Below are positions 24,234-64,000 of a DNA stretch of 64,000 nucleotides, one piece after another. The stretch's first letter is position 1. Each line of letters starts with the position of its first letter. The stretch spans positions 66,511,269-66,575,268 of the forward strand of contig NC_090375.1 in assembly GCF_036365525.1 (NCBI RefSeq), read 5' to 3'. A program made the position numbers and the translations under genes. Source of the DNA: Heterodontus francisci (lineage: Eukaryota). Below the pieces are notes generated by a model that saw only the letters and a list, made by a program, of their open reading frames with translations, did no database searches and had not been told where the DNA came from.

Positions 24234-25825
24234 CTGTGATTGGAAGGAAAAAAAGCAAGTGAATCCTTAACTTTGAATGAGGCCTTTCCACCCTGTAAGG
24301 CTTAGCTTTGCAGTTACTTTATATCATGGCATATGGGTTGCTTCAAAATAAATTCATATGTATTCAAATAGAAAAATAAAGCAAAATAATTGTTTATACG
24401 TTATGACATTTTGCAATTTACTTTGTATCATGATGCCTGCACTGGTAGTTATAACCTCTAGACCCCGGTATGGTAACTGGGGTACTCCATTTTCTATCTG
24501 AAGAATATGGTCTGTATTACTCCATAGCAGCAAAATATAACAGGGCTATATTCCAACAACCTCATCCTATAAAATCTACCAACTTGATTTGATATCAATT
24601 TGTCCAGAAATGAGATACAGCCAGGGGACTATGTGGGGATGTAGGTTAGCACTCTATCATTTCACCTCTAAATAAGGGACTAGAAATCAGTGCAGACTGA
24701 TGGAATAAAAGTCATAGCTCTCTGACAACTGTAAACATATTACAGGAAATGAATTTAAGGCACCTTAAGCTAGGACTTAATGCATATAACTCCACCAAAC
24801 CGGAAAATAGCAGGGCAGTAGAATTAATTTTGGACTGTTCTAGCAAAGAGCAAGCATCAACACATTGGGCCAAATGGACTCCTACTGTACTGTAAATTTC
24901 TACAGCTATAGAAAGGAAGATGTTGGCCTACCCACCCTCAATGCCAGGCCACCTCCAACCCTACTTCAAAACTTGTAAGCAAATAAATGTAGTTATGGCT
25001 GACTATCTTTGTTAAATTTTGATCATACATACATTTATGAAATTTACACATAAAAATTCTCTGCTCATTAGGAATGATTGGCTGTTGAAGTCAAGGTAGG
25101 GCTGCATCAGATGCTTGTGAGGAGGGCTTTCCTCTCTACTACTTCACAGCACCATCCCATAGGTCAGCAAGGTGCTATGTTCCTAAGAAAATGATTATAA
25201 GTTTCAGGCCACAACTGACCATTACTGTTTACTGTCTACTGACCATTACTAACCTAATGTGCAAGCATTTGGCTGTGTTGTAGCCACGGGCTTCTTTGCA
25301 GCAGATGGCACAGCTTAGCATCTGCCCTTCCGAGGATGCAGACACTAAGAAAGTAGGGTCATATTATCATTCCTAGGTAGGTTTTCCAGAGCCTGCAGAT
25401 ATGGTTGGTGGCATCCTGGCAGTGCACAAAACAGACAATGTGGGCTCCTAATCACCCTAGCATGCCTTCTTTCATGCAGTACAATGTGAAGCATGACATG
25501 TTATGATTCTAAAAAAACTTTGCAACATAAGAGTTAGTTATTCAGTTATTTGCATTTCATTTTGATGCCTCTGGAGGTCATTTTATGTAGTCATCTTTGG
25601 AAAGAGGAGCCTTCACCAACAGTGTCTGTGAAAGTGAGGTATTCTACCTCACCTTACAGATGTAGGGGTCTAAGTGTTGTGACAGGTCACAGAAGACCTG
25701 TACCTGTTGGGCAGCCTGACTGCCCGCCATCCTTATCTAGCTTCTCCTCTTCCTCCCAAGATGTCAGTTTGGAGGATTCCTAATGACAAAATCTCTGGTG
25801 CCAATAAAGGAAGCTTGGAGTGAAC

Positions 25826-31200: not shown

Positions 31201-33222
31201 CATCACATAGATTGGTGCAGCTCAATTATGTGCGTGTTAAAGAAGGATGGAGCAATCAGGGTATGTCTTAGATCCATAGAGTCATAGAGTTATACAGCAC
31301 AGAAACAGGCCCTTCAGCCCATCGTGTCTGTGCCGGCCATAAAGTACCTAACTATTCTAATCCCATTTTCCAGCACTTGGCCCATAGCCTTGTATGCTAT
31401 GGCGTTTCAAGTGCTCATCTAAATACTTCTTAAATATTGTGAGTACCTGAGGCATCTAAACCACTCCCTAAAGAAATGCCCCACAAGATTCCAACACTAG
31501 AGGAATTGAATTGGAGCCAAATTCTTCTCCAGGTTGGATGCTAAACATGGATATTGATCTGTACACTTAGCTAAGGAATCTCAGGAAGTCAATACCTTCA
31601 GAACACAATTTGCAAGATATTGCTTCCAGAGACTACTCTTTGGCTTCTCTGTCAGTCAAGATCTGTTTTAGCAGAATATGGACAGAACTTTAGAAAACGT
31701 GCCTGGATGTATATGGTATTGCTGATGATATTGTGGTAATGGGCAAAACCAAAGAAGAGCATGATCGAAATCTTCATTCACTGACGGCAGTAGCTCGTCA
31801 CAAAGGGCTCGTTTTTAACAGCAAGTGCCAGGTCAAGTAAGTCAGATCAATTTCTTTGAGATTAGATTAGATTAGAGATACAGCACTGAAACAGGCCCTT
31901 CGGCCCACCGAGTCTGTGCCGAACATCAACCACCCTTTTTTATACTAATTTTATACTAATTTGGTTCCATCTATTCAAGTTGCAGAATCCATCCTAACCC
32001 TGGCAAAGTTGAAGATGCAAGGCATATGCCTACTCCACAAGACAAAGAAGATCTACAGAGATGTCTTGGAGTTTTCAACTTCTTGGCACAACACATTCCA
32101 AATTTTTCTGACAAAGCATCATCAATGAGAGAGCTCTTAAAGAAAGACGTATCATATGTATGGCAGGAGGACCATCAGCATATGTTTGAGTCTCTCAAAC
32201 AAGCATTGTCAGCAGAAACCTGTACCCTGCAGTACTATGATCCAAGGAAGAAGACAATCCTGGAAGTCGACACCTCACAGAAAGGGCTAGGAGCGTGCAT
32301 CCTGCAGGATGGCAAACCAATTGTATTCAGATCCAAAAGTTTATCCTTAGCACAATCCAATTACTCAAACGTAGAGTGTGAAACACTTGCTCTGGTGTTT
32401 GGGATCACAAGGTTCCACACTTTCCTGTTCTGTAAGCAATTCACTGTGGAAACCTACCACAAACCACTGGAGGTGATCTGGCGCAAACCATTGACAAGCG
32501 CACCACCTCGACTACAGCAGCTCTTAGTGAAAGTACAGGGGTACGACTTCAACGTCTACTACAAACCTCGGATAAGTTGAGCAGATTGCCAAATCTGAAC
32601 AAGAATGAAGAAGTCCCACTAGATCTACAAGTAGACAGCATGGACAACGAGGTGGAAGATGTGCTCAAAATCGATTTATTACATTTTGGTCAGCACAAAT
32701 GTGACCAACTGCAATCAAAAACAGCCAATGACCCCACAACTGAAGGCGCTGTGGAGAGTCATCATAGAAGGATAGCCTGATACGATAAAAGAGGTATCAG
32801 AAACCCTCAGATGCTTTTGGCCTTATCGAGATGAACTTGGTACCTCAAGAGGTGTAGCCTTCAAGGGAAAACAAGTGATTGTGCCCAAAGCTCTCCCACA
32901 GGACATCTTGTCACAACTTCACCAAGGCCATATAGGTATAGAAAGAACAAGACAACTGGCACGAGACACTATTTATTGATCAGGGATCAACGATGATATG
33001 AAAAGTTAGTGAGGATATGCGAGGCTGCCAGAGCCACCAGCCACAACAACGTAAAGAAAGTCTACATCCTCACGTGATTCTGTCAGACCCTTGGTCCAAA
33101 ATTGCCACTGATCTATTTACTGTGAATGGAGACGACTTTATCTTAGTCACCGATTATTTCTCCAAATTTCCAATTGTCAGACATGTAAAAGACACTTCAA
33201 GTTTGCTTGTCACAGACACATT

Positions 33223-34106: not shown

Positions 34107-36167
34107 TATTCAGTGCCATATTTAATCTGTTTGGTGCACCTGGAGAAATTATTTCTGAAAATGGGCCACAGTATACGGGCAGACCTTTCAGGGACGTGTG
34201 CGCCAAATGGGGCGTAAACCATGTGACATCCTCACCACATTAACCTAGATCCAATGGTATTGCCAAGTGAATGGTTCGCACAGTTAAATCGCTAATCCTG
34301 AAGTGTAGGACAACGAAGCAAGTTTTTCATGTCGTCATGTTACACCTCAGAGCTACACCTATGGATAAGCACTTACAGTCACCAGCAGAGATCATGTTTG
34401 GCAGACACAAGTGAGAACGATTCTGCTGAGCCATCATGTGTCCAAATTCTCCAAGATGCAGGCGACACAGCTCGAGAAACAAGGGAGAATGAAAATGATG
34501 CATGACTGACATGCAGAGACGGAACTAGCTCAACTACATGTAGGACAAAAAGTCAGGGTCATTCACCCCACAATGAGAACATGGCTACCTGCAGAGGTAT
34601 CCAAAGTATGCAGTGAGCCTAGGTCCTACGCGATTACAACATCTAATGCATCAGTGTTGAGGAGGAAACAAAGCCAACTGAGAGAAGTGTGCCATACTCC
34701 AGCTGTGCACAGCAGACTCGAATGAACACAGTGCGAAGATGAGGGTGTGATGGAACAACAGGACAACAACCAACATATTGACAACATGTCTGCAAACCAA
34801 GAACAGCCAAGGGTGAAATCCACATCCCCAGAAGGTTATACTATAACAAGGTCTGGAAGAGTTGTTAAACCACCGAAACAATATATGGACTGTTATGCTT
34901 CTGCACTCATATATTTCACAATCCTTATCTTTATACTTGTAAATTTTATTATCTCTATCCCTATATAACTAATTTTGATGATTATCCAATTTTATGTGTT
35001 TATACTTATAGCTTACAAGACTTATCTTTGGAAAGAGAAGAGATATTGTATGATCGCTTTAAGAACTCAGTATGCTAATGAGCTAAGTACCAGGATGTAG
35101 TCATGTGACTAGAAGCCATAGTCACTCTGCATGGCAACACCCTGGACAAAATGTTCTGTATATAGTTTGCTCTGTATTGTATGCACTAGTTTAGCTGTTA
35201 ATAAACCTAGAGATCTTCAAGGAACTGGGATCCACGTACCTCATTGTGCTGCTTAAGGTAACACAAAGAAACTCATGACGTTTGCCATAGATTATGTGAC
35301 ATCTGCATGTCAGGAACTGCACCTTGCATCCCACAAAGAGCAATATTAAAACACCTTTAAGCAATATGATCTCTAAATGTCAGACACCTAAATGTCCAAA
35401 AATAAAAGTTCATCCCAATGGGTCTTTCGTTTGCAATACATCTTTTCGTAAAGCATCTGTTAGGCATATAAAACAGATCAGGCTGTAGACTTTCAACAGT
35501 AAGGGCTGAATTTAACATCAGAAGTGGTGGCCCCGACACTGGGCTGGAAAGCCGCGGGCAACCCCGCCATGGCCATTTCCAGGAGCCCCGATGCAATCTA
35601 TGCCCATCAAGCAATTAACTGGCTGGCGTAGGGACTCCTGTCCCTCTAAGGGTGGAGATCCCTCCTCCATGTGCTACCAGTCAATCAGAGATTGGATAGA
35701 ACAGGCTACAGAACCCAGATAAGTGGGGTTGGGCTTGCTGGGCCTAGTCAGGCAGGTCCCGGCGGTAGTAGTGGGGAGGTGTCTTTGGTAAGTGCAGTGG
35801 GGGGTGGTGGTTCAGTGGAGGCGGCCCTTTCTGCCAGGGGGGACCCTCTGTGGGCCACACGGTGCCTGATCGGGGGCGCCCCAACCCCAAGCCCGCAGAG
35901 AGGCCGCCAGCTTTTACGGGTACAATATCAGCAGCAGCAGGAAGAGGCCCTTAAGCAGCCCTTATTTGGCCACTTAAGGGCCTCAATTGGCCTTGAGGCA
36001 GGAAGGCCTTCTTCGACCTTCCCCGTCCTTGAATGAATTGGACAGACGGTCACTCCACTCATCACAACCTCCCCCTGCCCCCCCTCCTTCCAATGCCTTC
36101 CCTTCTGATTCTATGGCACATTATTATTAATAATAATAACTACAGCATGCACAATGCAATTTCTGAC

Positions 36168-36295
36168 CTTTCCATGGCGTCCTGAATCCAGATCAGTTGC
36201 CGATACCTGTACAACTGACATGCCAACTGCAGCACCTTCAGGGACCGTGGCCTCATAAGTGGATGAGGTAAAGAAAGGAACATTATCGTTCACAT
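36168..36295 (-). CDS. Type III cadherin exon 4
   Basis: CAG|AT...AAG|GTCAGA, 128 nt, phase 1 to 0; DVNDNVPFFTSSTYEATVPEG...SATDLDSGRHGK. Confidence 0.92.
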
Positions 36296-36714
36296 CTGAA
36301 AATTGAACAACCAAAGAGACCAAAGTGTACTTTATCTCGTAGCACAACAAAAGAAGGAACCTTGTGTAGTCATAGGGCCAACATTATTAACATTATTGCA
36401 TTTTATTTAAGAAAACTGTTTTAAAAGAATCACCCAACACAGATCACACAATGAGCTGAGGAACATCATTGCAAAAGAAAGTGCACACTGAGGAAAGATC
36501 ATTTTGCCAATCAAGTCTGCTTCTCCCATAGATCATGTACAATATATCATATCAATAGCCCACTTTCTTCCAATAATTTTCTTCCCTATTTTTCTGGAAA
36601 CTGTAAAAATAATATTGAAAAAGCTCAGCAATAGAGGGGAACCTTCTAAGATGCCAAAGACATGAGCAGATAGACTGGGAAACAGCATTTAAATTTGGGA
36701 TATTTCAAACATAC

Positions 36715-39685: not shown

Positions 39686-42396
39686 TCTTTCACGGGATGT
39701 GGGCGTCACTGGCCAGGCCAGCATTTATTGCCCATACCTAATTGCACTTGAGAAGGTGATGCTGAGCTGCCTTCTTGAACCACTGCAGTACATGTGGCAT
39801 AGGGACACCCATAGTGCTGCTAGGGAGGGAGTTCCAGGATTTTGACCCAGCGACAGTGAAGGAACGGCGATATAGTTCCAAGTGAGGATGGTGTGTGGCT
39901 TGGAGGGGAACTTACAGGTGGTGGTGTTCCCATGCATCTGCTGCTCTTGTCCTTCTAGGTGGTAAAGGTCGCGGGTTTGGAAGGTGCTGCCGAAGGAATC
40001 TTGGCCAGTTGCCGCAGTGAATCTTGTAGAGGTACACACTGCTGCCACTGTGCGTCGGTGGTGGAGGGAGTGAATGTTGAGGGGGGTGGATGGGGTGCCA
40101 ATCAAGCGGGCTGCTTTATCCTGGATGGTGCACTCATCCAGGCAAGTGGAGAGTATTCCATCACATTCCTGACTTGTGGCTTGTAGATGGTGGACAGGCT
40201 TTGGGGAGTCAGGAGGTGAGTTACCGCAGAATTCCCAGCCTCTGATCTGCTCTTGTAGCCACGATATTTATATGGCTACTCCAGTTCAGTTTCTGGTCAA
40301 TGGTAACCCTCAGGATATTGATGGTGTGGGACTCAGCAATGGTAATGCCATTGAATGTCAAGGGGAAATGGTTTGATTCTCTCTTGTTGAAGATGGTCAT
40401 TGCCTGGCACTTGTGTAGCACTAATGTTACTTGCCACTCATCAGCCCAAGCCTGAATGTTATCCAGGTTATCTGCATATGGACACGGACTGCTTCAGTAT
40501 CTGAGGAGTTGTGAATGGTGCTGAACATGGTGTAATCATCAGCAAACATCCCCACTTCTGACCTTATGAAGGAGGGAAGGTCATTTATGAAGCAGCTGAA
40601 GAAAGTTGGGCCCAGGACACTATCCTGAGGAACTCCTACAGTGATGTCCTGGGAATGAGATGATTGACCTCAAACAACCACAACCATCTTCCTTTGCGCT
40701 AGGTATGATTCTAGCCAATGGAGAGTTTTTCCCCTGATTCCCATTGACTCCAGTTTTGCTAGGGCTCCTTGATGCCAAACTCGGTCAAATGCTGCCTTGA
40801 GGTCATGCACAGTCACTCTCACTTCACCTCTTGATTTCAGCTCTTTTGTCCACATTTGGACCAAGGCTGTAATGAGGTCAACTGCTGAGTGGCCCTGGCG
40901 GAATCCAAACTGAGCGTCAGTGAGCAGGTTATTGCTGAGTAAGTGCTGCTTGCTAGCACTGTCGATGACCTCTTCCATCACTTTGCCGATGATCGAGAGT
41001 AGACTGACGGGCCGGTAATTACCTGGGTTGGATTTGTCCTGCTTTTTGTGGAAAGGACAGGGTTTTGCAACATAGGCCCTGCAGGCCTGGATCCAGCCCA
41101 CCAAAGGTTTCCACCTGGCCTGCATATTTATTTCAGAGATGCAAAATTTTACAGTCTTCTTTTTTCAGACTGGCTTTTTAAAAAAATTTGCGCTGAGTTT
41201 AAGCTGACAGGTGCTGGGAGCGGGAACAGCAGTTTCTGAACTTCAGACCGATTCGGGGTTTTCAGGTGGGTTCCAACTGTTTTTTAAAAGCCTGCCGGAA
41301 AACCCCAAATTTGTCCCAAGTTCAGAAACCCTGTTCCTGATGTCACCACTTGTCAGCTGTGAAACTGACAGCGCAATATATAAAAAAACTGACCAATCAC
41401 AAAGCTACTGTGTTGAATGTTCCCGCTCCATACAACTGTCAGAGACAGAGAGAGACTGAAGGCGAGTTAGAGGAACAGAGAGAGAGGAGGGGAGAGAGAG
41501 AGGGAGAGAGAGAGAGGGGGCAGAGAGAGAGATGGGGGAACAGAGAGAGGGGGGACAGACAGAGAGAGAGATGGGGCAGAGAGAGAGAGAAGCAGAGAGA
41601 GGGGGGGACAGAGAGAGAGAGAGAGATAGGGCAGAGAGAGAGGGGGGACAGAGAGAGAAAGGGCGGACAGAGATTGAGGGGGGACGCAGAGAGCGAGGAT
41701 GACACAGAGAGGGGGGAACAACACAAAGGGTGAAACACAGGGAGATTGAGAGAGAGAGAGAAAGAGAAAGGGAGAGAAAGTGATCAAGGTCACTCCTGAC
41801 AGATGGACATCTCTCTGGAATACTCCGCATCACTACAAGTGTGCAGGCAAACATTGACTACTTGTGCAAGCAAAGAAATGCCAGGTATCTCATTAAATCA
41901 GTGTCCAACATAGTGATGAGAAAGTAAGTCAATAAATTAATCTTCTCATTTAAAGATTCTTCATAAAAATGCACATTTGTTGTTTTGATCAATAGTAAGA
42001 TAAATTTTTAATGCCTTGATCTTTCTGAAACTGTCTCACTAGCCCCCGACGTAAGACAAAAATTTTCATGTGTCCCCCCCTCACCTGAAAAGGTTGGACA
42101 ACCCTGGTACAGGACATACCTGGGCAATTTTCCACATTATCAGGTAGATAATAGTGCTGTAGCTGTACTGGAACAGCTTGGCTAGGGGCACGGCCAGTTC
42201 TGGAGCACAAGTCTTCAGCACTATTGCTGGAATGTTGTCAGGGCCCATAGCTTTTGCAGTAGCCAGTGCCTCACGTGGAGTGAATCGGATTGGCTGAAGA
42301 CGGGCATCTTTGATGCTGGGGACCTCAGAAGGAGGCTGAGATGGATCATCCACTCGGCACTTCTGACTGAAGATGGATGCAAATGCTTCAGCCTTG
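39686..42396 (-). mobile_element. Second-family CR1-clade LINE pieces (about 39686-41050 and 42107-42396)
   Basis: KQDKSNPGNYRPVSLLS, QFGFRQGHS, DLKAAFDRVWH, KAMGPDNIPAIVLK. Confidence 0.87.
41443..41780. repeat. Degenerate (GA)n / polypurine low-complexity tract
   Basis: About 340 bp of near-pure A/G on the plus strand with recurring GGGGGACAGAGAGAG units. Confidence 0.95.
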
Positions 42397-42904: not shown

Positions 42905-43560
42905 TTGAGAATTGCTGAAAATAGACATGTTGGCGAAGCTTTTCATCTTGGACTCATCAGGATAATATGCAAGAATAACCAATGTAAGGGAAAACAACAA
43001 ATTAAAATGCATGAGAAGAGAGTGCTGATTGGTTGGCAAGTGAACTCTGATTGGTAGAGGTGTTGCCATGGAGAATGCACCAGTTTATGGTGACTGACAG
43101 TTAACTGCCAAGAAATAAAAACAAGAAATGCTGGAACCACTCAGCAGGTCTGGCACCATCTGTGGAAAGAGAAGCAGAGTTAACGTTTCAGGACCCGAAA
43201 TGTTAACTCTGCTTCTCTTTCCACAGGTGCTGCCAGACCTGCTGAGTGGTTCCAGCATTTCTTGTTTTTATTTCAGATTTCCAGCATCTGCAGTATTTTG
43301 CTTTTAGTTAACTGCCAAGCTTTGTTTGAAATTTAAACCTCTGGTTTGACTCTGATTGGTCAAGGCATTGCCCTGAGGAATGAACCAGCGAATTTCTGTC
43401 ACTTTTTTGTTCAGCTGAAACAGGCACAATGTGCGTATATGTCCTTTCTGTCTGCAAAGAACAGAGTCCTGTGTATTGATATATGTAGCTTCTAGTACGC
43501 GCAAATGCGCCACACTGCCAGCACGACTGACCATCATAAATTGGTTGTCAGCGTAATTCT
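42905..43560 (-). mobile_element. Penelope-like element 3' fragment (GIY-YIG C-terminus plus degenerate hammerhead core)
   Basis: LRVLEATYINTQDSVLCRQK; minus-strand CTGATGAG-TCCAAGAT-GAAAAGCTTC at about 42934-42959. Confidence 0.7.
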
Positions 43561-43570: not shown

Positions 43571-46500
43571 TGGAACAGTCTGGTCCTAATTTTTAGACGA
43601 TGCTCCCTAGTTTTAGAATCTCCAACCAGTGGAAATAGTTTATCTTTATCCAACCTGTCTTTTCCTGTAAATATCTTGAAGACTTCGATCAGATCACCCC
43701 TTAATCTTCTAAATTCGAGTGAAAACAGGCCTAATTTGAGCAATCTCTCCTCGTAACTTAACCCCTGTAGTACAGGTTTCATTCTTGCAAACCTACATTG
43801 CACTCCCTCCAAGGCCAATATATCCTTCCTAAGGTGTGGTGCCCAGAACTGCCCACAGTACTCCAAGTGGGGTCTAACCAGGGTTTTGTACAGCTGCAGC
43901 ATAACCTCTGTGTCTTAATACTCCAATCCTCGAGATATAAAGGCTAGCATTCCATTCGCCTTTTTGATTATTTTCTGCATTTGCTCATGGCATTTTAAAG
44001 TCTCTTTGGACATCCATTGTACTTAACCTCTTCCCATTTAGAAAGTATCCTGCTCTATCCGTTTTTGGTCCAAAATGGATAATCTCACACTTGCCCGCAT
44101 TGAAATCCATCTGCCACAGTTTTGCCCACTCACCTAGTCTGTCAATATCTCTTTGCAATTTTATGCTATCATCTAGACTGTCGACAGTGCCGCCTAACTT
44201 TGTATCATCAGCAAATTTGGATATATGACTTACTATGCCATCATCCAAGTTGTTAATGAATAATGTGAATAATTGAGGCCCCAACACAGATCCCTGTGGG
44301 ACACCACTAGTTACATCCTGCCAATCGGAGTACTTACCCATTATCCCCACTCTCTGTCGTCTACCACTCAACCAACTTCCTAACCATGTCAATAATTTGC
44401 CCTCAACCCCATGGGCTTCTACCTTAGTTAACAGTCTCTTATGTGGGACTTTATCAAATGCCTTCTGGAAGTCCAATAAATAACATCCATAGACATTCCC
44501 GTGTCCACTAACTTAGTCACCTCTTCAAAAAATTCAATGAGATTTGTCAGGCATGACCTTCCCGTCATGAATCCATGCTGGCTGTCCCTGATTAACTGAA
44601 ATTTTTCGAGGTGTTCAGTCACCCTATCCTTGATTATAGACTTCAGCAACTTGCCCACCACAGATATCAGGCTAACTGGTCTGTAATTTCCTTGGTTCCC
44701 CCTTTCACACTTCTTAAAAAGTGGAGTGACATGTGCAACTTTCCAATCCAGAGGGACCACTCCTGAATCTAGGGAACTCTGAAAGACTATAGTTAGGGCA
44801 TCTACAATGTGCTCCCCTACTTCCTTTAACACCCTCGGATGGAATCAGTCAGGTCCTGGGGATTTCATACTCTTTAGTTCCATTAGTTTCCTTGTTACTG
44901 ATTTTTTTACTTACGTTAATTGTATTAAGTCCCTGTCCCCTATCGGCTATTAATTTTTTCGGGACTTGCGGCAAGTTATCCTCCTTTTCAGCTGTAAATA
45001 CTGAGGCAAAGTAATTGTTCAACATGTCTGCCATTTCCCCATTATCAATGACAATATCTCCATTTTCAGCTTTTAGTGGGCCGACATTGCTCGTGACCAC
45101 CCGCTTTCTCTTTATGTAACTATAAAATTTCTTCTTATTGATTTTGAAGTTCCTTGCAAGTTTCCTTTCATAATCTCTTTTAGTAGCTCTTATAAGCTGC
45201 TTTGTGACCCTTTGCTGGTCTTTGTATCGATCCCATTCGGCCGGATCTGTGCTGCATTTTGCATTTTTGTAAGCCCTTTCTTTTTGTTTTATGCTATCCC
45301 TAATCTCTTTAGTTGTCCAATGCTGTTTTTTCTGTGAAGTGGAGCTTTTTCCTCTCAGGGGTATATACTCGCTCTGTATTTCGTTAAATGTTTCTTTAAA
45401 TATTCTCCACTGTTCTTCGGTCGTTTGACCCATTACAGATCGACCCAGTTTACCTTGGACAGTCTCTGTCTCATCCCGGTAAAGTCAGCCTTACCCAAGT
45501 CTAAAATTCTAGTAGCTAATTCGTGTTTTTCACTTTCAAATGCTACCTTGAATTCGATCATGTTGTGATCACTATTTGATAAATGTTCTCGCACATTTAG
45601 GCTACTAATTAAATTTGGCTTATTACTCATAACTAAATCTAATATTGCCTGTCCCCTTGTTACATCTAGGACATATTGCTGTAGGAAACTATCCCGGACA
45701 CATTCCAGAAATTCACTACCTTTCTGATAGGTGCCAGTCTGCCTCTCCCAATCTATGTAGAAGTTAAAATCCCCCATTAATACTACTCTGCCTTTGTTAC
45801 ACATTTGCCTAATTTGTGCATTTATACAATCTAACACCTCAGAACTGCTACCAGGGTGTCTATACACAACACCTATTATAGTTTTAGATCCTTTCCTGTT
45901 CCTCAATTCCACCCATAAGGTGGATGCTTTCCCCTCATTATATCCTCCCTCACCAATGAGGTGATATTATTTCTAATCAATAAGGCTACTCCACCCCCTC
46001 TGCCATTTTCCCTGTCCCTCCTGTAAGAACAAAGAGAACAAAGAACAAAGAAAATTACAGCACAGGAACAGGCCCTTCGGCCCTCCAAGCCTGCGCCGAT
46101 CCAGATCCCCTATCTAAACATGTCGCCTATTTTCTTAGGGTCTGTATCTCTTTGCTTCCTGCCCATTCATGTATCTGTCTAGATACATCTTAAAAGACGC
46201 TATCGTGTTCGCGTCTACCACCTCCGCTGGCAACGCGTTCCAGGCACCCACCACCCTCTGCGTAAAGAACTTTCCACGCATATCCCCCCTAAACTTTTCC
46301 CCTCTCACTTTGAACTCGTGACCCCTAGTAATTGAATCCCCCACTCTGGGAAAAAGCTTCTTGCTATCCACCCTGTCTATACCTCTCATGATTTTGTACA
46401 CCTCAATCAGGTCCCCCCTCAACCTTCGTCTTTCTAATGAAAATAATCCTAATCTACTCAACCTCTCTTCATAGCTAGCGCCCTCCATACCAGGCAACAT

Positions 46501-49500
46501 CCTGGTGAACCTCCTCTGCACCCTCTCCAAAGCATCTACATCCTTTTGGTAATGTGGCGACCAGAACTGCACGCAGTATTCCAAATGTGGCCGAACCAAA
46601 GTCTTATACAACTGTAACATGACCTGCCAACCCTTGTACTCCAATGAAGGAAAGCATGCTGTATGCCTTCTTGACCACTCTATTGACCTGCGTTGCCACC
46701 TTCAGGGAACGATGGACCTGAACACCCAAATCTCTCTGTACATCAATTTGCCCCAGGACTTTTCCATTTACAGTATAATTCACTCTTGAATTGGATCTTC
46801 CAAAATGCATCACCTCGCATTTGCCCTGATTGAACTCCATCTGCCATTTCTCTGCCCAACTCTCCAATCTATTTAAATTCTGCTGTATTCTCTGACAGTC
46901 CCCTTCACTATCTGCTACTCCACCAATCTTAGTGTCGTCTGCAAACTTGCTAATCAGACCACCTATACTTTCCTCCAAATCATTTATGTATATCACAAAC
47001 AACAGTGGTCCCAGCACGGATCCCTGTGGAACACCACTGGTCACACGTCTCCATTTTGAGAAACTCCCTTCCACTGCTACTCTCTGTCTCCTGTTGCCCA
47101 GCCAGTTCTTTATCCATCTAGCTAGTACACCCTGGACCCCATGCGACTTCACTTTCTCCATCAGCCTACCATGGGGAACCTTATCAAACGCCTTACTGAA
47201 GTCCATATATGACATCTACAGCCCTTCTCTCATCAATCAACTTTGTCGCTTCCTCAAAGAATTCTATTAAGTTGGTAAGACATGACCTTCCCTGCACAAA
47301 ACCATGTTGCCTATCACTGGTAAGCCCATTTTCTTCCAAATGGGAATAGATCCTATCCCTCAGTATCTTCTCCAGCAGCTTCCCTACCACTGACGTCAGG
47401 CTCACCGGTCTATAATTACCTGGATTTTCCCTGCTACCCTTCTTAAACAAGGGGACAACATTAGCAATTCTCCAGTCCTCCGGGACCTCACCCGTGTTTA
47501 AGGATGCTGCAAAGATATCTGTTAAGGCCCCAGCTATTTCCTCTCTCGCTTCCCTCAGTAACCTGGGATAGATCCCATCCGGACCTGGGGACTTGTCCAC
47601 CTTAATGCCTTTTAGAATACCCAACACTTCCTCCCTCCTTATGCCGACTTGACCCTCTGATGTATGAAACAGATGTATGAATTGAATATTAGCAGTATAG
47701 TTATCCAATGCAGTTTCTAAACTGCCAAACTACAATACCTGTGTATTGTATGTTAAAAAATAAAAAAAAATCTAAAATGTACCTGTGTACATAACTTTGT
47801 AAAGACACTGAGAAATTATACTAACTTATTTATGTTAAGAATTGATGTTTTTGGAATCTAGAAGATAATTTTCCGTTAAGCCAAAGTGGCGTTTTTCATG
47901 TGCATTTGTAAATGCTTTATTGTAGATCTGTCCCTCACCTCAACATCCGTCATGTCCCTCTCCTCGGTGAATACCGATGCAAAGTACTCATTTAGAATCT
48001 CACCCATTTTCTCTGACTCCACGCATAACTTTCCTCCTTTGTCCTTGAGTGGGCCAATCCTTTCTCTAGTTACCCTCTTGCTCCTTATATATGAAGAAAA
48101 GTCTTTGGGATTTTCCTTAACCCTGTTTGCTAAAGATATTTCATGACCCCTTTTAGCCCTCTTAATTCCTCGTTTCAGATTGGTCCGACATTCCCGATAT
48201 TCTTTCAAAGCTTCGTCTTTCTTCAGCCTCCTAGACCTTATGTATGCTTCCTTTTTCCTCTTAGCTAGTCTCACAATTTCACCTGTCATCCATGGTTCCC
48301 TAATCTTGCCATTTCGATCCCTCATTTTCACAGGAACATGTCTCTCCTGCACGCTAATCAACCTCTCTTTAAAAGCCTCCCACATATCAAATATGGATTT
48401 ACCTTCAAACAGCTGCTCCCAATCTACATTCCCCAGCTCCTGCCGAATTTTGGTATAGTTGGCCTTCCCCCAATTTAGCACTCTTCCTTTGGGACCACTC
48501 TCGTCTTTGTCCATGAGTATTCTAAATCTTACGGAATTGTGATCACTATTCCCAAAGTAGTCCCCTACTGAAACGTCAACCACCTGGCCGGGCTCATTCC
48601 CCAACACCAGGTCCAGTATGGCCCCTTCCCGAGTTGGACTATTTACATACTGCTCTAGAAAACCCTCCTGGATGCTCCTTACAAATTCTGCTCCATCTGG
48701 ACCTCTAACACTAAGTGAATCCCAGTCAATGTTGGGAAAATTAAAATCTCCTATCACCACCACCCTGTTGCTCCTACATCTTTCCATAATCTGTTTACAT
48801 ATTTGTACCTCTATCTCACGCTCGCTGTTGGGAGGCCTGTAGTACAGCCCCAACATTGTTACCGCACCCTTCCTATTTCTGAGTTCTGCCCATATTGCCT
48901 GACTGCTCGAGTCCTCCACAGTGCCCTCCTTCAGCACAGCTGTGATATCCTCTTTGACCAGTACTGCAACTCCTCCACCCCTTTTACCTCCTTCTCTATC
49001 CCGCCGGAAACATCGATATCCTGGGATATTTAGTTGCCAATCATGCCCTTCCCTCAACCAAGTCTCAGTAATAGCAATAACATCATACTCCCAGGTACTA
49101 ATCCAGGCCCTAAGTTCATCTGCCTTACCTACTACACTTCTTGCATTAAAACAAATGCACCTCAGACCACCAGTCCCTTTGCGTTCATCATCTGCTCCCT
49201 GTCTACTCTTTTCCTTAGTCACGCTGACTTCATTATCTAGTTCCTTACAGGCTTTAGTTACTACCTCCTTACTGTCCACTGACCTCCTCATTTGGTTCCC
49301 ATCCCCCTACCACATTAGTTTAAACCCTCCCCAACAGCGTTAGCAAAAGCACCGCCAAGGACATTGGTTCCAGTCCGGCTCAGGTGTAGACCGTCCAATT
49401 TGTAATAGTCCCACCTCCCCCAGAACCGGTCCCAATGTCCCAAAAATCTGAACCCCTCCCTCCTGCACCATCTCTCAAGCCACGCATTCATCCTGACTAT

Positions 49501-50220
49501 TCTTTCATTTCTACTCTGACTATCACGTGGCACTGGCAGCAATCCTGAGATTACTACCTCTGAGGTCCTACTTTTTAACTTGGCTCCTAACTCCCTAAAT
49601 TCTGCTTGTAGGACCTCATCCCGTTTTTTACCTATATCATTGGTGCCTATGTGCACAACGACAACTGGCTGTTCATCCTCCCCTTTCAGAATGTTCTGCA
49701 GCCGATCTGAGACATCCCTGACCCGTGCACCTGGGAGGCAACATACCATTCGGGAGTCTCGTTTTCGACCAGAGAACCGCCTATCTACTCCCCTTACAAT
49801 CGAATCCCCTATGACTATAGCCCTTCCACTCTTTTTCCCGCTCTTCCGAACAGCAGAGCCAGCCACGGTGCCATGAACCTTTATAACCAGGTATATTTAG
49901 TTCCCAGTCCCGACCATCCTGCAGCCACATCTCTGCAATCTCATATTCTTCCATTTGATTTTGCGCCTGCAGCTCATCTAGTTTATTCCTCACACTCCAT
50001 GCATTTGTATATAGAACTCTTATTTGGGCTATAGTCCCTAACCTGTCCCTCAGCACTGATGCTTTATTCGCCTGTTTATTATTTCTCTCTTCTCGGTTAA
50101 CCAGTATACTTCTTGCAGTTTGGTAACAATCATCCTCACCACTAACCTACACTCCTACCTTCTCCTTTAACTTCCTGTTTTTCCATGCAACTGAACCCTC
50201 TCCCCATTATTTAGTTTAAT
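43571..50220 (-). mobile_element. CR1 LINE ORF2 (43571-46025 and 49876-50220) interrupted by a younger CR1
   Basis: Host frame ...WELNIPGYK at about 49880 continues as YRRDRENGRGGGVALL at about 46025; endonuclease and RT ORF fragments 43534-45912. Confidence 0.9.
46026..49875 (-). mobile_element. Young CR1 LINE: 5'-truncated ORF1 (SGNH esterase) plus near-complete ORF2
   Basis: ORF1 49315-49866 has GDS, HIGTND and DGLHL; ORF2 endonuclease 47926-49291 (ITETWL, GDFN, SDHN); RT FADDTK; repeat tail. Confidence 0.95.
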
Positions 50221-53902: not shown

Positions 53903-54545
53903 ACTGGAACACACTACCTGAAGGGGTGGTAGAGGCAGGAAGCCTCACAACATTTAAGAAGTATTTAGATGAGCACTTAAAACGCCATAGCATACAAGGC
54001 TACGGGCCGAGTGCTGGAAAATGGGATTAGAATAGTTAGGTGCTTGATGGCTGGCACAAACACGATGGGCCAAAGGTCCTGTTTCTGTGCTGTATAACTC
54101 TATGACTCTATAATCAAGGCAGAAATTGGAGCAATACAATTGGCTTTAGCTCTTTGAGCTAAAGAGTGGAAAATAGATTTCCTATTCTTGGCTGCTATCC
54201 CCTCCTGGAAAGATCAGCTTCACTTGTGGAACTTGTCACTGTAATTGAACAGTCTGCTAACCCAAATTGTCAAGGCTGACACATAGAGTCATAGAGTTTT
54301 ACAGCAGAGAAACAGGCCCTTTGGCCCATCGTGTCTGTGCTGGCCATCAAGCACCTAACTATTCTAATCCCATTTTCCAGCAGTTGGCCCGTAGCCTTGT
54401 ATGCTATGGCACTTCAAGTGCTCATCTAAATACTTCTTAAATGTTGTGATGGTTCCTGCCTCTATCATCTCTTCAGGCAGTGTGTTCCAGATTCCAACCA
54501 TCCTCTGGGTGAAAACATTTTTCTTCAAACCCCCACTAAACCTCC
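53903..54545. mobile_element. Two CR1 3' ends in inverted (tail-to-tail) orientation
   Basis: 53903-54110 (+) and 54283-54545 (-) share about 200 bp and the CTCTATGACTCTA tail; same family at 31275-31440. Confidence 0.85.
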
Positions 54546-55260: not shown

Positions 55261-55596
55261 GAAAGACGTTTGTATAATTTGTCCTTTATTATTCCCTAAA
55301 GATGGTCTTGTTAGGATTAGACCAAAATTTCAATGATAAAGATTTTTTTATTTCATAGCTGAGCAATATATACCAGAAGTGGCTCATGTTTGATTCTAGG
55401 TCTGTGTTGGCCTCAGCCAGGGCACAAGTTGGAGATTTAATTAGCGTGATTTAACTTGGAAGTAACTTGACTTTATTAAAATCTAAAGTGTATCAGATTT
55501 CTGTGCTGAGATTATCCTTCACTAAAAATTTTGCATCCTCATAAAGCAATCCTTCGAAGCCTCACCAAGTCATATAATTTGACATGAATTACATAC

Positions 55597-55764
55597 CACA
55601 ATCCTCAAGTCACGAGTAGTGTTCTCTGGGATTGTTATTCGATATTCTTCTTGCTCCCACTGGGGTGGTTGGTTATGTATATTAGTGATGGTAACTGTTA
55701 GTTCTACGTTGCTGCTTCGATTGCCTCCGTCAGTTGCTATAATTTGACGACTGATATGAGCGAT
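55597..55764 (-). CDS. Type III cadherin exon 2 (not in ORF track)
   Basis: CTAG|ATC...GTG|GTATGT, 168 nt, phase 0 to 0; IAHISRQIIATDGGNRSSNVELTVTITNIHNQPPQWEQEEYRITIPENTTRDLRIV. Confidence 0.9.
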
Positions 55765-57065: not shown

Positions 57066-57823
57066 GGTAGCCTCACCCTTGGCCCTGGTCCCAGAACATT
57101 ATTTGTCTTGAGATGTTCCATCTTTTACAAAAGACAGGAAATTTCCAGAACCAGTGGCGACACCCTCCACCTTTCCCCAGGAGGGGGTTCAACAGTCTCA
57201 AGTCCAGAATGGCAGAACCCTCACGATCCTTGTGTTTAACTGGTAGGTCCAAGGTTAACCCAAGGTTGGGCTTCTGGAGAGAGTCCAGGAGGTAATGGGA
57301 TGGGGGTTGTTTTTGCTGGTGGGGGTTGAGCAGTTTAATATCCTGCTTGTCCCAGCTCCAGAAGTAAAAAAGTTCTAATTAACCTTTCCCGTGGCAGCCT
57401 TCAAAGGTCCCATTATGTACTTGAAACATCTGACTACATCATGCATAATGCATATTGCAATCAAGTGCAACTGAATTTTGCAAAGAGAACCACATGCAGA
57501 CATTAAGCCCCCTATTTGTAGGTGCACACCCTTGACACCTAAGGAGGAACCTTAACTAAAATGGACCCCAGATGCCTGTTTTACATATGTAAAATGAGTG
57601 CAGCACGATCTGATTTTGAGGACAAAATAATTAGAATTCATAGTATCCTTTCTAAAGACCAAATGCAAGGAGTAAGCACAGTCAGCTATGGACCTTTCAA
57701 ATTATATGTGCTCGGTTTAAGCTAGTTCAGGGCTGTATGGTTGTGCATTGTATTAGAACTGGCAGGACTTTGAAGCTGTTCTGTTTGATTTCATTATTAA
57801 CACTACAGGTCTCATTTCCTTAC

Positions 57824-57996
57824 CTGAGAAATGGGATGGTTGACATAAATCCAGCCTGTGCTGGGACTAATCTGGAAGTACCTTGGCTGCTGTTGTGATA
57901 TAGAGTAAGTGATGACTGCATTAATTCCATGGTCATCATCATGCGCTGCTGCACGCAGGAAACTAGTGCCAACTGGTGTGTCTTCACGCAAAAAGT
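57824..57996 (-). CDS. Type III (neural-cadherin-like) cadherin, internal exon 1 of 13 in window
   Basis: TTAG acceptor, CAG|GTAAGG donor, 173 nt, phase 1 to 0; encodes FLREDTPVGTSFLRAAAHDDDHGINAVITYSI...TGWIYVNHPISQ (cadherin repeat). Confidence 0.9.
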
Positions 57997-58561
57997 CTAA
58001 GTGCAGAAGAAGAACTGTTTCATCTAACATATTTTTTGCTAACTTTTTAAAATTGTATTTAAATTTGATCACTCCTCTTCATCTCGCTTTTAATTACATC
58101 ATTAGGTTGTATTCATTTCAACACATATTCCTGGGGCAGGATTTATGCCCCAATATGGGGGCAGGAACAGAGGCGGGTAATTCTGCACCGCCGGCTGTCG
58201 TGCCGGTTTCCCAATGCCATTCTGATGGTCAGCGATTTTGCTCGGGGTCGGGGAGAAAGGAGCAGATGCAGTGCCCCAGGCATGAGAAGGGCAGAGAAGG
58301 GGAATGAGGGCCAGGAAGGCAACGAATGCCATACCCTCAGCATTGAGTGGACTACCAAAGAATAAGTTATTTGTATATGTCAGAGAATCAGTGCTGCAGA
58401 AGGCTGCATGTAGCTAAGCAGATGGTCACTGAGATTTGTGCCCTTGTTGAGGAAGACCTCAGACCTCACAACACTGCTTGCCATGCCATGCAAGTAGCCA
58501 TTAAATTTACTGTGGCCTTGAACTTGCTCTATTTCCGAAAGCTAGGCAGTACATACAATTT

Positions 58562-59175
58562 CATAGAAACAGAGAAACATAGAAAATAGGAGCAGGAGTA
58601 GGCCATTCGGCCCTTCGAGCCTGTTCCGCCATTCATTATGATCATGGCTGATCATCCAACTCACTAACTTGTTTCCACTTTCGCCCTATACCCTTTGATC
58701 CCTTTAGACCCAAGAGCTATATCTGACTCCTTCTTGAAAACATACAATGTCTTGGCCTCAACTGCTTTCTGTGTTAGCGAATTCCACAGATTCACCACTC
58801 TCTGGGTGAAGAAATTTCTCCTCATCTCAGTCCTGAATGGTTTACCCCGTATCCTTAGACTATGACCCCTGGTTCTGGACTCCCCCACCATCGGGAGCAT
58901 CCTTCCTGCATCTACCCTGACAAGTCCTGTTAGAATTTTATAGGTTTCTATGAGATCCCCCCTCTTCTGAACTCCAGCGAATATAATCCTAACCGACTCA
59001 ATCTCTCCTCATACGTCAGTCCTGCCATCCCAGGAATCAGTCTGGTAAACCTTCGCTGCACTCCCTCTGTAGCAAGAACATCCTTCCTCAGATAAGGAGA
59101 TCAAAACTGCACACAATATTCCAGGTGTGGCCTCACCAAGGCTCTGTATAATTGCAGCAAGACATCCCTACTTCT
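58562..59175 (-). mobile_element. CR1 LINE 3' fragment nested in Harbinger
   Basis: YRALVRPHLEYCVQF, WNSL; TTTCTATG-type tail. Confidence 0.9.
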
Positions 59176-59696
59176 TTCAAACAGATGGGAGCTCTCAGGC
59201 ACAAAGGCAGTGGATTTCACCTCCATCGTTGCATTCTCGCACATGCAGGGCATCATTGATTGCTGTGCCATCAAGGCGTTGAGTAAACGGCCAGTGAGAT
59301 TCATCAACAGGAAGGGCTTCCACTCCCTAAATGCCCAGCTGGTATTCCACCATAACAAGAACTTTATGCATGTGGACGCTCTCTATCCTGGCAGCTGCCA
59401 TGACACCTTCATCCTCCGGCAGTCTAGGGTGCCACAGCTCTTTGTGTCACCACCAAAACTCCATGGAAGGCTTTAAAGCACAAGGGATGGCACAACCCTT
59501 CAAGAGATGGCTACTCACTCCTTTGCATGACCCCGAGACAGGGGCACAGCAGTGCTCCAACCGAAGCCATTTGCTCACAAGAAGCACCATTGAACAGGCC
59601 ATCAAGCTTCAGATGATGCAGTTCCAGTGCCAGGACCTGTCGGGTGGTGCCCTACAGTACGTTCCTGCAAGGGTCTCACATTGTGATGGTCTGCTG

Positions 59697-61607
59697 GTGG
59701 TCAGAATATAAAGAACAGCAGAGAATGGCTAAAAGGTTAATCAGGAGAAAAAAAATAGAGTATGAGAGGAAACGAGCTAGAAATGTAAAAACAGATAGCA
59801 AGAGTTTCTACACGTATTTAAAAAGGAAAAGAGTAAGTAAAGTGAGTGTTGGTCTTCTAGAGAGTGAGAATGGGGAGTTAATAGTAGATAATAAGAAAAT
59901 GGTGGATGAAATGAACAAATATTTTGCTTCTGTCTTCACTATAGAGGATACAAAAAACATTCCAGTAGTAGCTGTAAATCAGGAGGTGGAACAAATTGGT
60001 GAAATTACAATCACCAGGGAAATAGTACTGAGCAAACTGATGGAGTTTCGGGCTGACAAGTCTTCGTGTCCTGATGGGCTTCATCCTAGCGTCTTAAAAG
60101 AGGTGGCTAATGAGGTAGTGGATGCTTTGGTGTTAATTTTTCAAAATTCACTGGATTCTGGAAAGGTTCCATCAGACTGGAAAGTAGCAAGTAGGGGTCG
60201 GGAGGAGGTAGAAAACAGGTAACTATAGGCCAGTTTGCTTGACGTCTGTCATGGGGAAGGTGTTGGAATCGATCATTAAGGAGGCTACAGCTGGGCACTT
60301 AGAAAAGCTTAAGGTAATTGGGAATAGTCAGCATGGTTTTGTGAAAGGGAAATCATGTTTAACCAATTTATTGGAGCTTTTTGAAGGAGTAACATGCACT
60401 CTGGATAAAGGGGAGCCCGTTGACAGGCTGAACTTGGATTTTCAGAAGGCATTTGACAAGGTACTACATAAAGTCGGAGCTCATGGTGTAGGAAGTAACA
60501 TATTAACATGGAAAGAAGATTGGCTGGTTGGCAGAAAACAGAGAGCATGCATAAATGGGTCCTTTTCTGATTGGCAGGATGTGACGAGTGGAGTCCCGCA
60601 GGGGTCTGTGCTGGGGCCTCAATATTTTACAACTTACATCAATGACTTAGACGAGGGGAGCGATGGCATGGTAGCTAAATTTGCAGATGATGCAAAGATA
60701 GGTAGGAATGTATGTTGTTAAGAGGACATAAGGAGGTTGCAGACCAATTTAAATAGATTGAGTGGGCAAAAATCTGGCAGATGGAGCATAATGTGGGAAA
60801 ATGTGAAGTTGTGCACTTTGGCAGGAAGAATAAAAAAGCAGAGTATTACTTAATCGGAGAACGACTGCAGAATTCCGAGGTGCAGAGGGATCAAGGTGTT
60901 CTAGTGCACGAATCACAAAAAGTTAGAATGCAGGTACAGCAAGTCATAGAGAAGGCGAATGGAATGCTATCCTTTATTATGAGAGGAATTGAAAATAAAA
61001 GTAAGGATGTTATGCTTCAGTTATACAGGGCATTGGTGAGATCACATCTCGAATACTGTGTGCAGTTTTTGTCTCCTTATTTAAGGAAGCATTGGACGCG
61101 ATTCAAAGGAGTTTTACTAGATTGGTACCTGGAATGTCTTATCTTGTCTTATGAGGAAAGGTTGTACAGGCTGGGCTTGTTTTCACTGGAGTTTAGAATA
61201 GTGAGGGATGATTTGATTGAAGTATATAAGATCCTGAATGGTCTTGACAAGGTGGATGCGGAAAGGATGTTTCCTCTTGTGGGGGAGTCCAGAATTGGTA
61301 GCGGGGGGTGGGCACTGTTTTAAAATTAGGGGTCACCCCTTTAGGGCAGAGATGAGGAGAATTTTTTCTCTCAGAAGGTTGTATGACTTTGGAACTCTTT
61401 GCCTCAGAAGGTGGTGGAGGCGGGGTCATTGAATATTTTTAAGGTGGAGGTAGATAAATTCTTGTTAGGCAAGGGAATCGAAGATTATCAGGGTAAATGG
61501 GAGTGTGGAATTCAAAACACAAACAGATCAGCCATAATCTTATTGAATGGCGGAGCAGACTCGAGTGGCCAGATGGCCTACTTCTGCTTCTAATTCGTAT
61601 GTTTGTA
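59697..61607 (+). mobile_element. CR1 LINE (RT half) nested in Harbinger
   Basis: QHGFVKGKSCLTNL, SGVPQGSVLGP, FADD; tail TTCGTATGTTTGTAT. Confidence 0.92.
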
Positions 61608-62168
61608 TGCTGTGCTCTCTATAGCATGGCCCTCCAGAGAGTGTGGATCGAAGAGGCTGAAGCACTAGATCGACACAGTTTATCGGAGGAGGAGGAAGAA
61701 GAGGAGGAGGAGGTAGATACAGAGCAGAATGGCTCCCGTGCTGTGCAACGAGTTGGCTGGGGCCAGCTCAGGAGTCAAGGCTCTCATCAGGATGGCATGA
61801 ACTCCAGGGCACGTCTGATCCAGGCACATTTCACTTGAACGCTACTCATCTAGCAGTACTGCATTCTCTGGAACTCACTTTGATCTGCCTGTAAGAACAC
61901 ATCCATTAACCACATAACTTTGATTAGTTCCATTCTTACTGACAATGTTTAATCTCCAGCGGTCTCAGTGTCCCCATTCAAATGCCACTGCTTCCCTTCA
62001 ATACTTCTTCCATCTTTTACAGTCTTGTCATTAAAGAATGGAAGCTCACATGTCTGGGATCATGGCTTAAAATCTCCAATGTTAATAATAAATAATAATG
62101 CACACAATTACAGTGAAATAACCCCCAGTGAACCGCTTATTGCAATGACCGACGTGGTGGCCTTTGCT

Positions 62169-64000
62169 TGTAATGGAATATAGGTATAATAGGCTTAACT
62201 AGGTAGCATTCAGATATAGTTAATATATTATACCTTTTAGAATTAAAGGTTAAATAAATGATCAGTCTTCAAGACTCACTGATATTCCCCTTTAAACAGG
62301 TAGAGTTAAAAATTTCAAGGTCTTTCAAGGTCCCTGTTATGAACCAGAAACAAGTTGGGCAATCCATTTGTGTCTCTGTTGTCAGGGATTTGGAAGATAA
62401 CACACACATTGAAATATCCTGTGTGACATTAATAAGAGGTAGCAATAAACTTAATTAGTTTATGGGGTTGTTGATGCAGACAGATTGGCTCAAAAGGTTG
62501 CTTTAAGGAACCATAAAAAAGCAATTATATATAATAAAACAATAAATGAATGGACTTACAGAAACAAGAGGTCAAGTAAACACAATTATAAACATTTGAC
62601 CAGATAAATGCTCAAAACTTCAAGAACAGGGGATTTCCAGTAAAACATTAAATGGAGAGTTAGTTAATGATACTACCAAATATGGATCTTGAAAGCAAGA
62701 AAAACACACACAGAAAAGTAACACCTATATGCTAAGAGGTCATATGACACTTTAGCAACAGTATAAACATGAGAGTTTTTGAAGCAAAGATTAGAAGTGT
62801 TGAATTCCTCAAATAATACTTCTCACCCTATGCCTTACTCAGGGAATTTAATGTGAAAGTTTACTTTAAATTTTGATGGATAGTCTAAGGTATTTTGCTG
62901 TAACATTAGCAAGTTTAAACTTTTGGATTCTATGATAGAAATAAGATTATGTGTTACATCTCTTAGTAATATTTGATATTGTGATATACTTATCCACTTA
63001 AAAGTGTATTGCATGTTAAATTCTTTAATAAACATATAAAAGTTAATAAATCATCTCATGGAACATTCTGTATGCTATAAGAACCCCCTCTCTGTGTCTC
63101 TTTAAGTGGAGAGATACATATTGAAGAGAGTTTCCCAGACCCTTGTAATATCTGGGATATTTATGACCTAGCCATAATTATTAAAAATAGGCTATCCAAA
63201 AGATGGTAATATTCTCTGTTGGTTTTCTTTCTTTGAGGGAAAATTAGTTCAATTCTTTGCATCCAAATAAGTGTCTATAAGAATTTGTCTGGTTTGAACT
63301 TAATTAAGGGAGATTCATAGGGACGTAGTCCTGATTTGGTTTAGTCCCTATAAGGGGTTAAAGTCATAAATCACTTCAGTTGGCACCCAAAAACGAGTCT
63401 TCTTGTTAACAGAATCCGGTACTTATATGTTAGTCTTTAATGATTATTTTAGATTTGTAAGTACGGAAGGAATGTTTACTGTCAGTGGTATTAAGATCCC
63501 GATTTAAGAATCTATAGACAGCAAAATCTTGATCATGGTTTGTGGATCTTAAATCAGAACTCCCTCATTCTACTTTTGAGGTTTGGAAATTTCCTTTAAA
63601 GTTCACTTTAAATCCTAGCTGAGATTAGGTCCTGACATATTTTAATTCCTAGTTCAGGTTCCGTTCCGATATAATGGCTAATGAAGAAGGGATTGGCTTA
63701 ATTTTTCCATTGGGTGATCCAACAACTTGTTTTAGTACATTACAGAATCCCATTCCGCTGCCTCAGGCAGATTGAGTGGTAGTCTCTGAGATAAATAATT
63801 TTGATGCCGATGGTTCAGTTAGAGCTTATGGTACTATTGTGGCTGACTCCCAGGAGGAAGGGATAGCACGTATTCAGTGGGATAAACAGACTGATACCCC
63901 AGACCCACAACATTCCTTAATGATAAAGTATAGGATCATAAAGAGAATCATTCTCATTGGTGGCTGCCTCAGCCCTTTGATGGTAATCTGGATCGCTGGA
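62169..64000 (+). mobile_element. Candidate endogenous retrovirus 5' end (LTR, tRNA-Lys-like PBS, gag-like frame), possibly foamy-like
   Basis: TG at 62169, CA at 63377-63378, then TGGCACCCAA at 63381; TATAAG 63076; ATTAAA 63180 followed by a GT/T-rich tract; ATAATGG start at 63674 opens a 109-codon frame to the window end with one TGA. Confidence 0.5.

Follow-up and report, generated by a model that had tools for sequence, protein, structure and literature searches.

The deep history of retroviruses is calibrated mainly on foamy viruses, of which germ-line copies are rare. The group is further marked by a Gag that lacks Cys-His boxes, separate expression of pol, an internal promoter, and accessory genes. 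Among the described copies are CoeEFV, from the coelacanth, a lobe-finned fish, in the study of which a foamy-type Env (pfam03408) was the decisive marker (Han and Worobey 2012, PMC3386198), and the elements ERV-Spuma-Spu of tuatara (PMC6669660) and ERV-Spuma-Cbo of stork (PMC6955096). Foamy-like endogenous retroviruses (ERVs) have been reported from teleosts (PMC5210030) and a chimaera (PMC5512871, 2017), along with a catshark element (PMC10699275) and other ERVs of the elephant shark (PMC4422223). A further one is CFEFV, a cartilaginous fish endogenous foamy virus whose identification a paper announces in its title (Wang, Chen and Cui 2023, J Virol 97:e0181622, PMC9972966; listed in the references of PMC10581153 and PMC12386078). 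Going by that title, CFEFV shares both host group and virus group with the element described here; the available text of PMC12690878 holds nothing further on sharks.

We analyzed a stretch of 64,000 nucleotides, referred to here as the window. Its positions 62169-64000 very probably hold the front part of an endogenous foamy virus that belongs to the "true" spumavirus type, like CoeEFV and the tuatara and stork elements, and sits in an elasmobranch germ line: the 5' LTR, the primer-binding site (PBS), the leader, and 327 nt from the start of gag (Table 1). Composition, motifs, identity at the LTR/PBS junction, and a stop codon in the frame were observed directly; the promoter layout, the identity of Gag, a frameshift, the intronic position, and all that would lie beyond 64000 (pol, env, the 3' LTR, and the second target site) are inferred. 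A 5' LTR, a Lys PBS, and the gag start of a foamy-type provirus lying antisense to a cadherin gene had been proposed in the first-pass annotation, and comparison with the published parts of other endogenous foamy viruses (EFVs) strengthened this proposal. The motifs listed there (the TG at 62169, TATAAG, ATTAAA, GT/T-rich tract, hairpin, CACTTCA, spacer, PBS, ATG, TGA, and 66-aa ORF) were all found at the positions given. Since such fossils have already been reported from cartilaginous fish, the element most likely adds another rare copy to them and does not represent a new kind.

Table 1. Features of the putative foamy provirus and its surroundings, in window coordinates.
Feature	Position	Strand	Basis or remark
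Small cadherin exons	about 11694-11912, 13704-13778, 18399-18818, 22660-22818, 24042-24239, 36114-36383, 55573-55764, 57815-58078	-	
Nearest detected cadherin exon to the element	57815-58078	-	Pfam Cadherin, E 1.2e-11
Left flank, probably decayed Harbinger sequence (3' part)	61604-62168	+	Continuity presumed
Putative 5' LTR, TG...CA, 1210 nt	62169-63378	+	Composition, change point, PBS junction
Probable U3, A-rich in its 3' half	62169-62795	+	Judged from the A-to-T skew switch at 62796
66-aa ORF, probably due to chance	62258-62458	+	P 0.057 (1000 shuffles)
Preferred TATA box, TATAAA	62762-62767	+	34 nt upstream of the skew switch; CoeEFV-like spacing to AATAAA
Candidate major splice donor in R (GT at 62890)	62887-62895	+	7/9 consensus positions
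Candidate poly(A) signal, AATAAA	63027-63032	+	CoeEFV-like context; second AATAAA at 63045
TATAAG, less likely promoter	63076-63081	+	One of three TATAAG in 62169-64000
ATTAAA with downstream GT/T-rich tract, alternative poly(A) signal	63180-63185	+	Distance to LTR end
U5 hairpin	63318-63353	+	Arms 63318-63324 and 63344-63350
LTR-terminal CA, 2-nt spacer, and first 10 nt of a tRNA-Lys1,2-type PBS	63377-63390	+	Identity to the CoeEFV junction
Untranslated leader	63391-63673	+	PBS start to ATG, 293 nt
Putative 5' end of a defective gag, spuma-type N-terminal domain	63674-64000	+	Comparison by eye with CoeEFV, tuatara, and stork Gag
Nine out-of-frame codons resembling stork EFV Gag	63961-63987	+	6/9 residues match

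The window comes from a vertebrate genome and contains many LINEs of the CR1/L2 type. One CR1-type LINE, at 45966-49896 on the minus strand, is relatively well kept; its ORF1 (49318-49896) encodes a GDSL/SGNH esterase, and its endonuclease stretch spans 476 codons. The endonuclease (47879-49306) had 28 matches, 10 of which carried an organism name: 8 were from rays or sharks (50-58% identity) and 2 from birds (35-37%). As the named relatives are mostly rays and sharks at 50-58% identity, the host is taken to be an elasmobranch. On its minus strand, the window also holds a neural-cadherin-like gene (si:dkey-22o22.2 orthologue group), whose detected exons span 11694-58078 and include a 1.7-kb open stretch (14599-16329) that encodes five cadherin repeats. 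In a tree of 24 rows, made up of the window exon and 23 named homologues out of 120 listed, this exon fell outside the ray-finned fishes, and its placement relative to a bird was not separated. No further cadherin-like exon turned up in 58078-64000. Because no exon follows 58078 and the last one encodes an internal cadherin repeat, the element is probably intronic and antisense to the gene.

To the left of the element lie a remnant of a Harbinger transposase (DDE_Tnp_4 in Pfam, 59096-59711) and a CR1/L2-type LINE (59731-61603). The region 59096-62168 is probably nested, with a Harbinger transposon split by the LINE and then cut again by the provirus at 62169. Harbinger sequence had been said to give way at exactly this point; the continuation of the transposon through 61604-62168 is presumed, and the edge itself was recovered by two of six change-point models. 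These two models placed it at 62170, with a tightest interval of 62157-62186, and the other four placed it at 61995-62066. Given this split of two against four, a left edge at 62169 is likely, short of proof. The LTR would be 1.2-1.4 kb long whichever of the six models is used, and its 3' end is fixed by the PBS junction. No purine tract was found upstream of 62169, as is expected for a 5' LTR. By analogy with foamy-like ERVs, for which a 4-nt target-site duplication and a conserved PPT:LTR junction have been described (PMC5210030), the last 4 nt of the left flank (62165-62168) are the predicted target-site duplication.

The LTR block stands out from the window by its composition. Its GC content of 31.6% equals the minimum for any 1210-nt stretch of the window, and its CpG observed/expected ratio is 0.03, versus 0.30 outside it. 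Most of the block falls inside the CpG-free gap 62153-63324, which no other such gap in the window exceeds. No second copy was found within the 64-kb window, and the best match to the remaining sequence had an E value of 0.33. The description of the block as AT-rich and unlike the other repeats is thus borne out. Its extreme loss of CpG would fit an AT-rich virus followed by methylation decay. With 1210 nt between its TG and CA, the block falls within the range of about 950-1700 nt given for foamy virus LTRs in the tuatara and stork reports (PMC6669660, PMC6955096).

The block ends in CACTTCA (at 63378), which is followed after two nucleotides by the PBS 10-mer TGGCACCCAA (63381-63390). Across the LTR end, spacer, and PBS, all 14 of 14 nucleotides are identical to the CoeEFV consensus (PMC3386198, Fig. 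S2). This 14-nt string occurs once in the window and in none of 100 shuffled windows, whereas the PBS 10-mer on its own was found in 25 of 100 shuffles and the combination of CA, 2-nt spacer, and PBS in 7 of 100. The match to a tRNA-Lys1,2 PBS is limited to these first 10 nt, and the remainder is degenerate, as opposed to a full 17-nt PBS in CoeEFV. The mismatch within the 10-mer, raised as a caveat in the first-pass annotation, turned out to be shared: the CoeEFV PBS has the same substitution relative to human foamy virus (PMC3386198), several tuatara copies carry the same variant, and a 2-nt spacer is common to the tuatara and stork elements (PMC6669660, PMC6955096). The caveat holds for the PBS beyond these 10 nt, where the mismatching is counted as a defect. 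No tRNA gene or Rfam family was detected within the window.

Inside the LTR, the better-supported promoter layout, as read from the sequence, runs from the TATAAA at 62762 through the skew switch (P 0.0012, 5000 shuffles) and the donor at 62890 to the AATAAA at 63027, and this arrangement follows the foamy order. The TATA box and AATAAA are 265 nt apart, compared with about 257 nt (counted by hand) in CoeEFV. The candidate donor is the top scorer among 87 GT sites in 62172-63700; its score of 7/9 is reached by 163 of the 3388 GT sites in the whole window. In prototype foamy virus (PFV), the donor sits inside R ahead of the poly(A) signal, and polyadenylation at the 5' end is suppressed by the binding of U1 (PMC3694450). 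R measures 193 nt in PFV, and would be longer here under the preferred layout. Around the AATAAA, 14 of 15 nucleotides are the same as around the AATAAA of the CoeEFV LTR (P 0.0045, 2000 shuffles, a post hoc value for a motif picked after inspection). The TATAAG at 63076, originally put forward in the TATA role, is less favored than the layout starting from 62762, with no donor above 6/9 between it and 63180.

The ATTAAA at 63180, with its GT-rich tract and a CoeEFV-like distance to the LTR end (198 nt here, about 225 nt as counted in CoeEFV), is a fair alternative poly(A) signal; ATTAAA occurs three times in 62169-64000. Folding of the U5 hairpin gave a z of -2.99 over 91 nt (63310-63400) and -1.21 over 321 nt, in a region (62100-64000) that contains 27 inverted repeats of at least 8 nt. 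A 9-nt motif in the 3' arm of the hairpin (63345-63353) recurs toward the end of the CoeEFV LTR. It is unique in the window, and its occurrence within the last 100 nt has a post hoc P of 0.00025. The suggestion that the 66-aa ORF is a remnant of a U3 accessory gene was not upheld: beside its P value (Table 1), an equally long ORF lies on the opposite strand, and no match was found in Pfam or Atlas. Similarly, the supposed LTR ORF of the tuatara element was judged not to be real (PMC6669660, PMC6955096).

Downstream of the PBS, the leader compares with lengths of about 220 nt in CoeEFV (PMC3386198) and about 300 nt in the newt element NviFLERV-1 (PMC5512871). A leader motif conserved between CoeEFV and tuatara in the published sequences was not visible by eye in 63391-63673. 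A donor-like GTAAGT is located at 63457-63462, 76 nt past the PBS start; its exon side is poor (6/9), and it could be a minor donor.

The ATG at 63674 opens a frame of 109 codons with a single TGA at 63773-63775 (codon 34). A frame of this kind, with no more than one stop in the 109 codons from its ATG, arose in 1.2-1.6% of 2000 shuffles. Comparison by eye points to Gag as the identity of this frame. Its residues 30-69 align with residues 22-60 of CoeEFV Gag with 12 identities over 40 columns and one gap, and two further identities follow along the same diagonal. The alignment has a hand-calculated BLOSUM62 score of 38, which corresponds to a P of 0.041 against 420-aa decoys, 0.009 against 110-aa decoys, and 0.003 with the position fixed. 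In addition, I40-x-N42 and R50 are spaced as in tuatara and stork Gag, in a region that corresponds in PFV Gag to the β1-β2 loop ending in Arg50 (PMC3649970).

A second likeness was found further downstream in another reading frame, where nine codons resemble stork EFV Gag (hand score 29, P 0.00125). This stretch lies 46.7 codons past R50, compared with 45 in stork Gag. The out-of-frame match suggests a probable frameshift somewhere within 63905-63958, which would leave the last 15-30 of the 109 codons out of frame. The peptide that had gone unrecognized in the first-pass annotation resembles, by eye, foamy Gag over residues 30-69, and its end is probably not Gag in this frame. The Gag starts compared were those of CoeEFV, tuatara, stork, and newt in full and part of that of AliFLERV; by eye, neither the newt nor the AliFLERV start gave a clear match. 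Since the likenesses in Gag and the LTR were all spotted by eye, given hand-calculated scores, and selected once several elements had been viewed, the P values are optimistic by roughly three- to five-fold.

Database searches with the gag-like frame returned no relatives. It matched no Pfam family, including Gag_spuma (pfam03276), and a search for longer homologues accepted 0 of 87 candidates. Against PDB sequences, two chance matches were obtained (E 1.4-1.5), PFV Gag not among them, and the double-tryptophan CTRS motif of PFV is absent. Among 1.84 billion representatives, the sole match (E 1.3e-4, JGI/IMG) was to a Kelch-repeat protein; this identity was rejected, as the match consists of weak scores summed over repeats, and Pfam found no Kelch motif in the frame. 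A fold model of all 109 residues was too poor for use (pLDDT 42.5) and had no match at E <= 0.001 in BFVD or PDB (best Z 4.5). A single-sequence model of residues 35-90 (56 residues, pLDDT 74) has four strands, and the PFV Gag head is a four-stranded sheet (PMC3649970). This model had no BFVD match at E <= 0.001, and the matches listed included generic beta-sheets; the best of them (Z 5.1, rmsd 4.3, 49 aligned) was discarded as an unrelated beta-barrel. Foamy Gag was absent among the matches listed, at most 50 in each, of five fold searches, which neither supports nor excludes a PFV-like fold.

Of the other explanations, the one that survives best, improbable as it is, takes the element for a tRNA-Lys-primed ERV from a different class III or fish lineage, such as a teleost-type FLERV, ERV-Spuma.0-Sca, or the snakehead-retrovirus-like CmiERV lineage I. 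AciFLERV, AliFLERV, CmiFLERV, and ERV-Spuma.0-Sca have a Lys PBS, a long LTR, and a fish host in common with the element (PMC5512871, PMC5210030, PMC10699275). Teleost foamy-like ERVs as a group are mostly primed by tRNA-Lys and have long LTRs (PMC5210030), ERV lineages of this sort have been reported from cartilaginous fish (PMC5512871, PMC10699275, PMC4422223), and their gag genes, too, have been described as lacking a database match (PMC10699275). The likenesses we found point instead to CoeEFV and the tuatara and stork elements. In the parts of AliFLERV and ERV-Spuma.0-Sca that were compared, the LTRs are richer in GC and the Gag starts unlike the 63674 frame, with no visible likeness at the AliFLERV Gag start (PMC5512871). 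ERV-Spuma.0-Sca has an LTR of 866 nt, the first 400 nt of which are GC-rich and unlike the block, and its gag begins about 670 nt past the LTR (PMC10699275). On these first 400 nt and the annotation, compared by eye, identity with that element was ruled out; a motif search of its supplement, in which sequence cells extend to 400 characters, gave no match.

Still less probable is a Gypsy/BEL LTR retrotransposon or an epsilon-like ERV with a Lys-like primer site. An AT-rich LTR of 1.2 kb is long for Gypsy elements; by the published retroviral LTR ranges, it is also long for epsilon-like ERVs. Although the PBS match is short, the window carries other LTR-retrotransposon remnants (RT_RNaseH at 567-1004 and 31960-32577), and epsilon-like ERVs are present in the elephant shark (PMC4422223), the LTR block has no DNA similarity to these remnants, and the junction and Gag likenesses point to foamy elements. 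Finally, that the motifs came together by chance in unique, AT-rich intron DNA is barely credible: single motifs are common, as the shuffles of the PBS 10-mer and of the open frame (P 0.012-0.016) attest, and the frame has no database match, but the window's most extreme composition stops exactly at a 14-nt junction identical to that of CoeEFV, and the frame follows at a normal distance with two separate positional matches to foamy Gag.

Within the foamy viruses, CoeEFV shares with the element the 14-nt junction, the 9-nt U5 motif, the AATAAA context, and an 8-nt context of the gag ATG (PMC3386198). Its LTR, at about 883 nt, is shorter than the 1210 nt found here (PMC3386198), and its Gag has about 25-30% identity by eye. 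The element is not CoeEFV itself, since only short motifs are shared at the DNA level with the published sequence and the host is an elasmobranch. ERV-Spuma-Spu and ERV-Spuma-Cbo resemble the element in their 2-nt spacer, their Lys PBS with the same CpG-site variants, and the I-x-N...R spacing of Gag. They differ in having LTRs of 935 nt and 576 nt, respectively, and shorter leaders, with no overall DNA likeness by eye in the sequences compared. PFV shares the donor in R ahead of the poly(A) signal with the candidate layout (PMC3694450), as well as four strands and an arginine closing the β1-β2 loop of the Gag head with the predicted one (PMC3649970), whereas no sequence match to it was detected, nor a fold match among those listed.

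The element may be a copy of CFEFV or belong to another lineage. The CFEFV study reportedly covered sharks and rays and placed CFEFV at the root of the vertebrate foamy viruses. That the element represents an elasmobranch foamy lineage distinct from the published CFEFVs, full-length or nearly so, and closer to CoeEFV and the tetrapod foamy viruses than its host predicts, is a doubtful extension of the foamy reading. If true, it would imply host jumps between shark, coelacanth, and tetrapod lineages or, alternatively, that the complex-foamy layout, with a donor in R, a spuma Gag head, and a Lys PBS, was already present in the jawed-vertebrate ancestor. As an endogenous foamy virus of either kind, the element overturns nothing, as ERVs of the foamy or foamy-like kind from cartilaginous fish have been in print since 2017 (PMC5512871) and 2023 (CFEFV). 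Rather, a cartilaginous-fish copy with LTR, PBS, and gag start adds noncoding and Gag information from the earliest-branching jawed vertebrates. A surviving 3' LTR, if present, would give an insertion date, paired LTRs being datable where the genome evolves slowly, and the sequence separating it from env would reveal whether shark foamy viruses had accessory genes.

Read as a foamy provirus, the element would have inserted into a decayed Harbinger transposon, probably within an intron of the neural-cadherin-like gene and antisense to it. While live, it would have been transcribed from the TATA box near 62762, starting near 62790. The donor at 62890 in R would have fed the spliced pol and env messages and, as in PFV, silenced the 5' poly(A) signal. 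A tRNA-Lys bound at 63381 would have served as the primer for reverse transcription, and unspliced RNA, translated from 63674, would have yielded Gag with its spuma head domain. Because of the nonsense codon in gag, the probable frameshift, and the half-degenerate PBS, the provirus most likely makes no Gag and does not replicate. The element is now most likely an inert fossil; the nonsense codon was seen directly, and the loss of priming and the frameshift are inferred.

The window contains several other repeats. Decayed LTR-retrotransposon remnants of one kind, with RT_RNaseH, are found at 567-1693 (minus strand) and 30084-32780 (plus strand), and are unrelated to the foamy element. An AG-rich low-complexity tract at 41447-41790 is the source of long spurious ORFs. 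A near-perfect inverted repeat at 43112-43274 consists of two 81-nt arms that are 95% complementary, lie 1 nt apart, and derive from a repeat dispersed in the window. At 53904-54490, two copies of a 208-nt repeat form an inverted pair, 92% complementary and 171 nt apart.
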